A DNA stretch of 64,000 nucleotides, taken from a phage. Both the position numbers and the translations under genes were made by a program. Shown here piece after piece: positions 27,443 through 27,704 of this stretch. The stretch is taken from assembly GCA_012557565.1 (NCBI GenBank), contig GCA_012557565.1_3926.1. One strand, written 5' to 3'. How positions within the stretch are numbered: the first letter of the stretch is position 1; every line of letters begins with the position of its first letter. Under the pieces are notes generated by a model. It did no database searches and was not told where the DNA came from. It saw nothing but the letters and a program-made list of their open reading frames with translations.

Positions 27443-27471
27443 TTGACATTCAGATGTGACCACTTTATAGT
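27443..27471 (+). promoter_or_regulatory. sigma70-like promoter inside tRNA cluster
   Basis: TTGACA (27443-27448), 17-nt spacer, TATAGT (27466-27471). Confidence 0.5.
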
Positions 27472-27704
27472 TACCTTAGTTTTCGTTAGCGTAGCGTCTA
27501 TTTTGCAAACTTAAAAATAAATGCAAACGATAATGTTTTTCTGGCAGTAGCTTAATAGGCTAAACACCAGTGAGGTCTTCCAATCCCTCATCAAAGAATT
27601 TGGCGTACTAGCCCACGGTATGATTAATAAAGTGGGCAACATTCTAAAGGGTATCCCTTATGGGGCTTGGCTTAAATGCAATGAGTACCCTTTAAAATGT
27701 TAAT

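Follow-up and report, generated by a model that had tools for sequence, protein, structure and literature searches.

What lies in the gap between the tRNA-Ile gene (positions 27353-27427) and the tRNA-Arg(UCU) gene of a large phage tRNA cluster? This question was raised by an earlier note on a 64,000-nucleotide (nt) stretch of phage DNA (GenBank assembly GCA_012557565.1, contig GCA_012557565.1_3926.1), which as a whole is called the window below. The window belongs to a Felixounavirus-like phage, with 90 to 95% identity to Shigella phages Sf16, KPS64 and their relatives, and its 25 tRNA genes, as called by ARAGORN, are clustered at 25939-31167. The note, made from the sequence alone, had described a well-formed promoter followed by about 230 nt with neither a tRNA nor a credible open reading frame (ORF), and had proposed a small stable RNA of the kind processed from phage tRNA precursors or, alternatively, a long spacer with processing signals. 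Our analysis indicates that the segment 27478-27704 very probably specifies an RNA of a conserved family that has spread horizontally among enterobacterial phages and prophages and that originates from the coding piece of transfer-messenger RNA (tmRNA). Searches of the literature on the tags, on tmRNA-like phage RNAs, on anti-tmRNA RNAs and on Felixounavirus transcriptomes returned no published description of this family, and one outside the searchable literature is possible.

A start-less tag frame in the gap

The description of the gap as free of tRNAs and credible genes was borne out, since ARAGORN called no tRNA within 27472-27704 and the ORFs are at most 43 amino acids (aa) long and unconserved. 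What had been overlooked is a start-less frame of ten codons at 27523-27552, GCA AAC GAU AAU GUU UUU CUG GCA GUA GCU, which encodes ANDNVFLAVA (the E. coli tmRNA tag is ANDENYALAA). In the window, none of AUG, GUG and UUG occurs in this frame downstream of the preceding in-frame UAG, and this absence of a start codon fits entry via trans-translation rather than via initiation. The hexamer AUAAAU precedes the frame; it contains the counterpart of A84-U85-A86 of E. coli tmRNA, positions that matter for frame setting (Table 1).

Other copies of the element share AUAAAU, followed by GCA AAC GAN, exactly ten codons and a stop codon. The copy in phage S118 deviates in its context and first two codons (AUAAUC|GCU AAU). 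AUAAAU is present in eight of the nine loci found by BLAST (L001-L009), and L001 has AUAAUC|GCU. The tags of other copies include ANDDVVLMAA, ANEEMYLAVA, ANDEQFLAVA and similar peptides. In a pattern search of viral contigs, 124 of 128 matches contained the 10-codon frame, and the remainder were chance matches within protein genes. This pattern fixed AUAAAU as well as codons 1-4 and 7, leaving codons 5, 6 and 8-10 and the stop codon as free evidence; the nine BLAST-found loci, which were not bound by the pattern, displayed the same tag-frame features. Codon 10 specifies Ala through all four synonymous codons, third positions are the most variable, and neither of the other two frames had a conserved length. 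A +1 frame starting at the AUG inside AUAAAUGCA was rejected, as its length is not conserved.

Covariation supports a folded RNA core

The region from the tag frame onwards is predicted to form a helix-5-like stem-loop and two H-type pseudoknots (PK). We evaluated this fold on an alignment of 37 representatives, mutually less than 95.5% identical, that runs from AUAAAU to the core end. In the stem and the two pseudoknots, 90.6% of cells were paired, compared to 34 to 44% when the partners were slid by 1 to 3 columns. Compensatory changes were observed in 18 of 27 pairs (132 cells), for example a GC-to-AU replacement at column pair 28:53 of the helix-5-like stem in 16 sequences. The covariation score of 0.388 exceeded that of the slid controls (at most 0.097) and was reached by none of 500 shuffles. 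The two helices of pseudoknot a had 98.9% and 93.9% of their cells paired, with compensatory changes in 6 pairs. The fold of the whole stretch was also more stable than that of shuffled sequences (minimum free energy z -2.4). The two pseudoknots are like those of tmRNA in following the tag frame, and any specific homology to PK2-PK4 is conjectural. A degenerate tRNA-Gly that could be drawn by eye at 27540-27600 was rejected, because the same helices are explained by the covarying helix 5 and pseudoknot a.

The covariation also bears on a possible small protein gene. The largest ORF of the stretch, on the minus strand at 27511-27642 (43 aa), coincides with the conserved core. We nevertheless rejected it as practically out of the question: neither its stop-free length nor its frame is kept in relatives, several of which allow a maximum of 24 to 29 aa, the indels that separate the subfamilies are not multiples of three, and the variation fits RNA pairing.

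Table 1. Positions in the window of the predicted RNA, its parts and the flanking signals
Feature	Position	Strand	Details
Sigma-70-type promoter	27443-27471	+	-35 TTGACA 27443-27448; 17-nt spacer; -10 TATAGT 27466-27471; 11/12 consensus
Predicted RNA, ~227 nt	27478-27704	+	Ends inferred: 5' from -10 box, 3' from RNase P cleavage at tRNA-Arg
5' antisense arm	27478-27507	+	Against host tmRNA nt 76-106 (linker, resume codon, tag codons 2-6)
Arm block 1	27478-27486	+	AGUUUUCGU pairs with ACGAAAACU
Arm block 2	27494-27506	+	GCGUCUAUUUUGC pairs with GCAAAAAAUAGUCGC
Resume-codon context AUAAAU	27517-27522	+	AUA at -6 to -4, equivalent to A84-U85-A86 of E. coli tmRNA
Start-less tag frame	27523-27558	+	10 codons (27523-27552), then UAA UAG
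Helix-5-like stem-loop	27541-27570	+	Encloses end of tag frame, stop codons in loop; covariation
Pseudoknot a	27571-27603	+	Stem 1 27571-27575 with 27586-27590; loop CCAA 27580-27583 with UUGG 27600-27603
Pseudoknot b	27604-27637	+	Stem 1 27604-27609 with 27617-27622; stem 2 GCCC(AC) 27611-27616 with (GU)GGGC 27632-27637
16-bp hairpin	27638-27701	+	27638-27653 with 27686-27701, 94% complementary; ends three bases before tRNA-Arg; z -2.3
Loop motif of 16-bp hairpin	27662-27679	+	GGGGCUUGGCUUAAAUGC
tRNA-Arg(UCU)	27705-27781	+	ARAGORN, Rfam; 5' maturation of this tRNA would define where the RNA ends

The element is spread over unrelated phage groups

A sensitive BLAST search with 27428-27704 matched 625 phage records. 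Outside Felixounavirus, the central part (about 27513-27638) matched at 70 to 84% identity; carriers were found in the Ackermannviridae (S118, Ag3, May, T751), in the Schitoviridae (FSL SP-076, EC1-UPM), among Klebsiella and E. coli siphophages (MK54, Carvaje, Sa179lw) and in CMS-2020a, a 108-kb circular E. coli phage record. A related prophage version was present in 894 of 5426 complete E. coli genomes, at 635 chromosomal places and 359 on plasmids, and a copy in a lambdoid prophage sits between the Q antiterminator gene and the holin gene. In bacterial assemblies sampled at one genome per species, we found the element in a few Enterobacterales only. A covariance model of the family (R1) scored members on which it had not been trained at 64 to 134 bits. 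In the window it gave a single match, at 27517-27637, and no second copy.

In many phages, the element lies inside or beside a tRNA cluster. In MK54 and Sa179lw it stands alone between structural genes of the opposite strand, to which it is antisense, with its own TTGACA promoter; the Sa179lw element also has its own terminator, and two ordinary tRNAs lie downstream of the MK54 element. The promoter reported in the earlier note was confirmed, and three further lineages, represented by MK54, Sa179lw and Erwinia phage Rouille (L002, L004, L009), have a TTGACA promoter equally far from UAGUUUUCG, the conserved start. Over the whole region, promoter-like sites are no more frequent than expected (12 observed versus 15.4 expected), and the weight of the promoter at 27443-27471 therefore comes from this comparison with other phages.

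These data argue against a functionless decaying relic or a plain spacer with processing signals, a reading that could draw on the lack of any RNA annotation at the element among the matches listed in our phage and E. coli searches. An Rfam scan, which had been suggested as a check, likewise returned no family at gathering score in the 27472-27704 spacer, where it gave sub-threshold tmRNA-family matches only. Conservation analysis, also suggested as a check, showed that both sequence (BLAST) and structure (covariation) are conserved in relatives. Within Felixounavirus, the core is 95 to 97% identical in, e.g., JLBYU32, PMBT20 and L27, where neighboring spacers are 80 to 83% identical. The compensatory changes in two-thirds of the pairs, together with conservation across unrelated phage families, indicate a structured RNA and not an empty spacer. 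With a spread over at least five unrelated phage groups and a promoter conserved in position, we consider a relic or spacer very improbable, and what occupies the gap is better described as a conserved tmRNA-like RNA family.

Long hairpins with conserved arms (CACAACAGGTAAGAGCATT and AGTGCTCTTTCCGTTGTG) and highly variable inserts flank the tmRNA-like core in many phages (L012, L130 and other prophage loci). Positions 44767-44892 of the phage lambda record (H115) consist of one such hairpin module from which the core is absent; we take this module to lie between tR' and gene S. Some of the variable inserts resemble tRNA halves. At one locus (L003, NC_021782.1), the annotated tRNA coordinates are about 1030 to 1050 nt off from the ARAGORN and Rfam positions in the fetched sequence.

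A tmRNA message without a tRNA-like domain

The relation to tmRNA was further examined with covariance models and tRNA finders. At the element, the Rfam model tmRNA_permuted scored 31.3 bits, below its threshold of 47, and this match borrows the T-arm of tRNA-Ile, which the RNA's own promoter separates from the RNA. The Rfam tmRNA model (RF00023) gave a local match of 13.6 bits, limited to model positions 82-140, against a gathering threshold of 47; beta_tmRNA reached a sub-threshold 20.9 bits in EC1-UPM. Conversely, R1 aligned over its full length with the genuine permuted tmRNA of a phage locus (L010, tag ANDERFLMAA), at 28.7 bits (E 0.001), and scored E. coli ssrA at 16.9 bits (E 0.27). A match to the same permuted tmRNA was obtained by nhmmer (E 2e-9) in the tag region only, a region partly fixed by the search pattern.

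Environmental phage contigs retrieved by the same DNA pattern contain what ARAGORN calls a genuine permuted tmRNA with the tag ANDERFLMAA. Over 1.1 Mb of fetched loci, ARAGORN called a tRNA-like domain only in these environmental permuted tmRNAs and in the E. coli control, and in no enterobacterial copy. Promoter-driven transcripts begin at UAGUUUUCG, past the place where the 5' acceptor strand would lie, and contain no acceptor strand. The family has several features typical of tmRNA: a tag frame without a start that opens with a resume codon, ends in hydrophobic residues or Ala and has its stop in the helix 5 loop, and pseudoknots after the frame. It lacks a 7-bp acceptor stem carrying G3:U70, a T-arm and a 3' (A)CCA, and it scores below the Rfam threshold. 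It also lacks the upstream acceptor piece and the 5' acceptor strand of permuted two-piece tmRNAs (RF04321, RF01849-51).

P22-like prophage copies (L012, L044, L122, L127) carry GGGGCUU 105 nt upstream of the resume context and UAGCUCCA(CGA) 264 to 406 nt downstream of it. These strands could form a 6-bp acceptor-like helix with G3:U70 and A73, without a T-loop or CCA. Scans for GGGGCT, AGCTCCA and T-arm motifs recovered both acceptor-like strands only in a subset of the P22-like prophage copies, in which AGCUCCAC also lies within a local hairpin. Such copies may represent a residual or an unusual complete tmRNA.

Could the RNA be the coding piece of a true split tmRNA, whose acceptor piece is encoded separately (in a phage tRNA-like element or a hairpin module with a T-arm) and which works independently of host tmRNA? 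The family does resemble the coding piece of permuted phage tmRNA, T-arm-like GGUUCGA motifs occur in several flanking hairpin inserts, the acceptor-like strands of the P22-like copies, with G3:U70 and A73, are about 380 nt apart, and the window holds an uncalled tRNA-like element with an encoded CCA at 27947-28029. No partner, however, co-occurs in all lineages. The Sa179lw element is a minimal promoter-to-terminator unit in a 3.2-kb locus without a tRNA or tmRNA callable by ARAGORN, MK54 and the window also lack an acceptor 5' strand at the RNA start, and both the Rfam and the ARAGORN tests for a tRNA-like domain fail. We thus regard a split tmRNA as improbable.

The 5' arm is complementary to host tmRNA

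In a profile search, the first 40 to 50 nt of the family aligned, unexpectedly, to the reverse strand of E. coli ssrA. In most copies, the complementarity covers the 3' half of PK1, the linker AAAAAAUAGUC, the resume codon and codons 2-6 of host tmRNA: 76 of 84 distinct copies were predicted to form 31 to 43 bp, at -35 to -49 kcal/mol, from tmRNA nt 49-56 to nt 98-106 (mostly 106). The other eight, including the window copy, have short arms of 22 to 27 bp, seven of them pairing with nt 76/79-106. Since RNAduplex of the whole core against the whole tmRNA gave a meaningless full-length duplex, energies were calculated for the arm only. For seven long-arm representatives, these duplexes had -40 to -48 kcal/mol and extended from tmRNA nt 54-56 to nt 105-106; L006, whose whole-tmRNA prediction extended to nt 139, had an arm-only duplex of -46.2 kcal/mol. 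Compared to dinucleotide shuffles, the seven arms had z scores of -3.4 to -6.6, with L006 the weakest, and none of 200 shuffles was as good except for L006 (2 shuffles).

Local alignment gave a similar result, with scores of up to 41 for long arms versus 16.5 +/- 2.5 in shuffles. The window arm pairs through 24 bp with nt 76-106, and its alignment score of 26 (17.4 +/- 3.0 in shuffles) was reached by 10 of 1000 shuffles (p ~0.01). We then ranked targets among 10,940 natural 400-nt tiles (1.17 Mb), a scan used because BLAST against all E. coli genomes misses short imperfect matches in 28 Gb. Host tmRNAs were the best non-self targets of a long arm (41, next best 29) and were among the top handful for the window arm. 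E. coli and Klebsiella tmRNA do not differ over the target stretch; two Salmonella tmRNAs, which encode the tag ANDENYALAA, have one extra A in the A-run of the linker, with predicted energies within 0.4 kcal/mol.

Almost without exception, the arm of a copy is predicted to pair better with the host message than with that of the phage RNA itself, and phage tag codons 3-6 differ from the host tag codons. In Ounavirinae copies (the window, Rouille and L048), the constant blocks (A/G)GUUUUCGUU and CUAUUUU are exactly the pairing blocks, and the sequence between them varies. Extended and specific complementarity to an accessible part of tmRNA is thus a property of the family, to which the window copy conforms by alignment and not significantly by energy.

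A tentative model: docking on host tmRNA and replacement of the tag

We tentatively favor a model, built from sequence comparisons, in which the phage RNA docks by its antisense arm on host tmRNA and replaces the tag template, so that the tRNA-like domain and SmpB of the host would write a phage tag. Transcription would start at the RNA's own promoter, and trimming would take place at tRNA-Arg. The 5' arm of the RNA would base-pair with the exposed linker, the resume codon and the first tag codons of host tmRNA and, in most relatives, would also invade the 3' half of PK1. This pairing would hide the host tag template and tether the phage RNA to the alanine-charged tRNA-like domain of the host and to SmpB. 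The phage resume codon lies 10 to 18 nt beyond the predicted duplex, and the host resume codon lies 11 nt beyond PK1; the phage codon would thereby be positioned much like that of the host relative to PK1. Rescued ribosomes would then add (A)ANDNVFLAVA instead of ANDENYALAA, and the swapped tag might alter the fate of tagged proteins or keep rescue running on phage terms. If so, virus and host would each contribute a piece to what would be a natural hybrid tmRNA. We propose docking and template use in this form because they use the tag template, the resume determinants, the pseudoknots, the missing tRNA-like domain, the arm and the duplex spacing together.

Several points weigh against this model. 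The duplex energy of the window copy (-23.9 kcal/mol) is no better than that of shuffles (z -0.7), and copies of the L017 and L026 types keep just a 10-nt match (p ~0.08). The start UAGUUUUCGU resembles the D-loop analogue UAGUUUCGAC of a genuine permuted tmRNA, so that part of the arm match could be inherited rather than selected. The helix-5 stem likewise constrains those tag positions that seem selected, and in the metagenomic set the search pattern dictated codons 1-4 and 7. A one-piece host tmRNA carrying a branched duplex may be unable to load a foreign template, and we know of no such virus-host tmRNA hybrid. Finally, some prophage copies have GGGGCUU upstream and UAGCUCCA downstream, from which they may build their own acceptor stem; such copies would not need to dock.

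The main rival is that the RNA acts purely against tmRNA: its arm would sequester the resume and tag codons of the host and thereby shut off host trans-translation and tagging. The longer duplexes may attract RNase III, and the tmRNA-like body would serve stability or localization to the ribosome or S1, or would be inherited baggage. The same complementarity data fit this simpler reading. The target at tmRNA nt 79-106 consists of linker and message, and its tag-coding part is also what the standard anti-ssrA oligonucleotide covers. An in vitro precedent for such inhibition comes from cell-free systems, in which release from stalled ribosomes is suppressed by DNA oligonucleotides that are complementary to tmRNA (PMC3384345). 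A truncated phage tmRNA can also inhibit, as the tmRNA of mycobacteriophage DS6A, which consists of a tRNA-like domain only, inhibits host tmRNA (PMC4131195). Inhibition by itself, however, leaves unexplained why the 10-codon frame, the stop position and AUA at -6 to -4 are kept across subfamilies with a rebuilt helix 5, why the tags have degron-like ends (AN[DE]...L[AM][AV]A) and why the phage resume codon has a PK1-like spacing from the duplex. For the present we judge pure inhibition unlikely, though a serious contender.

We give little credence to the idea that the structured RNA serves a different purpose, for example as a sponge for proteins (S1, SmpB, RNase R) or in the processing or stability of the tRNA transcript, and that its likeness to tmRNA reflects ancestry only. 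The element does occur in tRNA clusters or beside tRNAs in many phages, long hairpins flank it, and the arm match of the window is statistically modest. Nevertheless, the siphophage copies stand alone, with their own promoter and terminator and antisense to structural genes, and neither the tag-frame signature nor the specificity of the arm for tmRNA is explained in this way.

Ends of the RNA and neighboring spacers

From the -10 box and from RNase P cleavage at tRNA-Arg, we infer the ends of a transcript that is promoter-driven, structured and probably stable. To this extent, the earlier idea of a small stable RNA processed from a tRNA precursor fits the locus, in that RNase P would release the RNA at tRNA-Arg. 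The 16-bp hairpin that precedes tRNA-Arg is possibly a 3' stabilizer or a processing site. A motif, GGGGCTTGGCTTAAATGC, found at the loop of this hairpin in the window, occurs in 22 of 124 loci (L002, L012, L047 and others), at positions that vary relative to the core, either upstream (-105 or -83) or downstream (+145). Its sequence is similar to a 5' acceptor strand, as in tmRNA or tRNA-Ala, combined with a second UAAAUGCA context.

Other tRNA-free stretches of the cluster had been listed as similar to this one. The resemblance did not hold: 27782-28042 and 28133-28385 contain no tRNA callable by ARAGORN, are conserved only within Ounavirinae and at a lower identity (about 80 to 83%), and do not match R1. 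An identical 15-mer, CAGTTCTCTACAAAG, at 27245-27259 and 28364-28378, ends the spacers before tRNA-Met and tRNA-Leu and may be a shared processing signal.

The tRNA cluster has further peculiarities. The tRNA-like element at 27947-28029 has an 8-bp acceptor stem, a T-arm with GGGGUUCGAAUCCUCC and an encoded GCCA end, without a normal D or anticodon arm; it was called by neither ARAGORN nor Rfam, and the segment is conserved in a Pectobacterium phage (86.8%). Two weak matches to the tRNA model that ARAGORN did not call, at 26847-26921 (30.9 bits, just above threshold) and 26498-26578 (22.8 bits, below), could represent degenerate tRNAs or tRNAs of an unusual kind. A motif of about 24 nt, ACAGAAGACCGTTTACAGCAAACA (family D11), is present in four copies (26099-26145, 26262-26308, 26745-26791 and 26833-26879), each directly after a tRNA or in a spacer. 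A tandem duplication of 272 nt (29259-29530 and 29531-29802, 74% identity) contains one ORF per copy, of 92 or 75 aa. Each duplicate opens with a sequence resembling a tRNA 3' half, GGGGTTCGAATCCCTTATTCTGCAC(C/A)A (29264-29293 and 29536-29565), and 29264-29293 corresponds to the 3' half of tRNA-Arg(ACG).

Significance and comparison with known systems

Trans-translation is the main ribosome-rescue and quality-control pathway of bacteria and an antibiotic target. As far as we found, the phage tmRNA elements known so far are whole tmRNAs and one inhibitor that consists of a tRNA-like domain only. If our model is true, viruses would have a new means to hijack or silence trans-translation, in the form of a tmRNA derivative reduced to the message and equipped with an arm against host tmRNA; if only inhibition holds, the RNA would be a natural counterpart of the laboratory anti-ssrA oligonucleotide. 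The family is found in hundreds of phages, including the therapy and typing groups Felixounavirus and Kuttervirus, and in about one-sixth of complete E. coli genomes. The annotation of long unannotated stretches of carrier phages and of lambdoid late leaders would, if the model is true, have to be changed.

The earlier note had tentatively placed the RNA with the small stable RNAs processed from phage tRNA precursors. Like species 1 and 2 of T4, it is a small non-tRNA RNA of a phage tRNA cluster that is presumably released by tRNA processing enzymes. It differs from these in being derived from tmRNA, in carrying an antisense arm and in standing, in some phages, apart from any tRNA cluster under its own promoter and terminator. 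We saw no evidence of a relationship with the T4 species, with no T4 sequence compared.

With tmRNA (SsrA, RF00023), the phage RNA shares the GCA resume codon after an A/U-rich context, with AUA at -6 to -4, a short start-less AND...AA tag frame whose stop lies in a helix-5-like loop, and pseudoknots after the frame. It differs in having two pseudoknots after the frame instead of three and none of the PK1 type before it, in lacking the acceptor stem, the T-arm and CCA, and in scoring far under the Rfam threshold. In its 5' part, the relation to tmRNA nt 54-106 is one of antisense and not of homology. The coding piece of permuted tmRNA (L010; RF04321, RF01850) is similar in its identical resume context (AUAAAU|GCAAACGA), in the LMAA tag end of many members and in colinear similarity through the downstream pseudoknot region. 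A true coding piece, in contrast, begins with the 5' acceptor strand and lies in one precursor with the acceptor piece, whereas the transcript of the phage RNA starts later and no acceptor piece is present.

The oligonucleotides used against tmRNA in cell-free translation and ribosome display (PMC3384345) are likewise complementary to tmRNA and block trans-translation in vitro. They are artificial DNA without a template, whereas the phage RNA is natural and has a resume codon and a tag frame. The tmRNA database papers of 2014 and 2025 list phage tmRNAs with tRNA-like domains and one form with a tRNA-like domain only, that of DS6A, and state that truncated forms were rejected (PMC4131195, PMC11915505). 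Like the DS6A RNA, the RNA described here is a truncated derivative of tmRNA carried by a phage, with an actual or proposed effect on host trans-translation (PMC4131195, PMC11915505). The two are mirror images in what they retain: DS6A has a tRNA-like domain without a message, and the present family has a message without a tRNA-like domain, together with an antisense arm.

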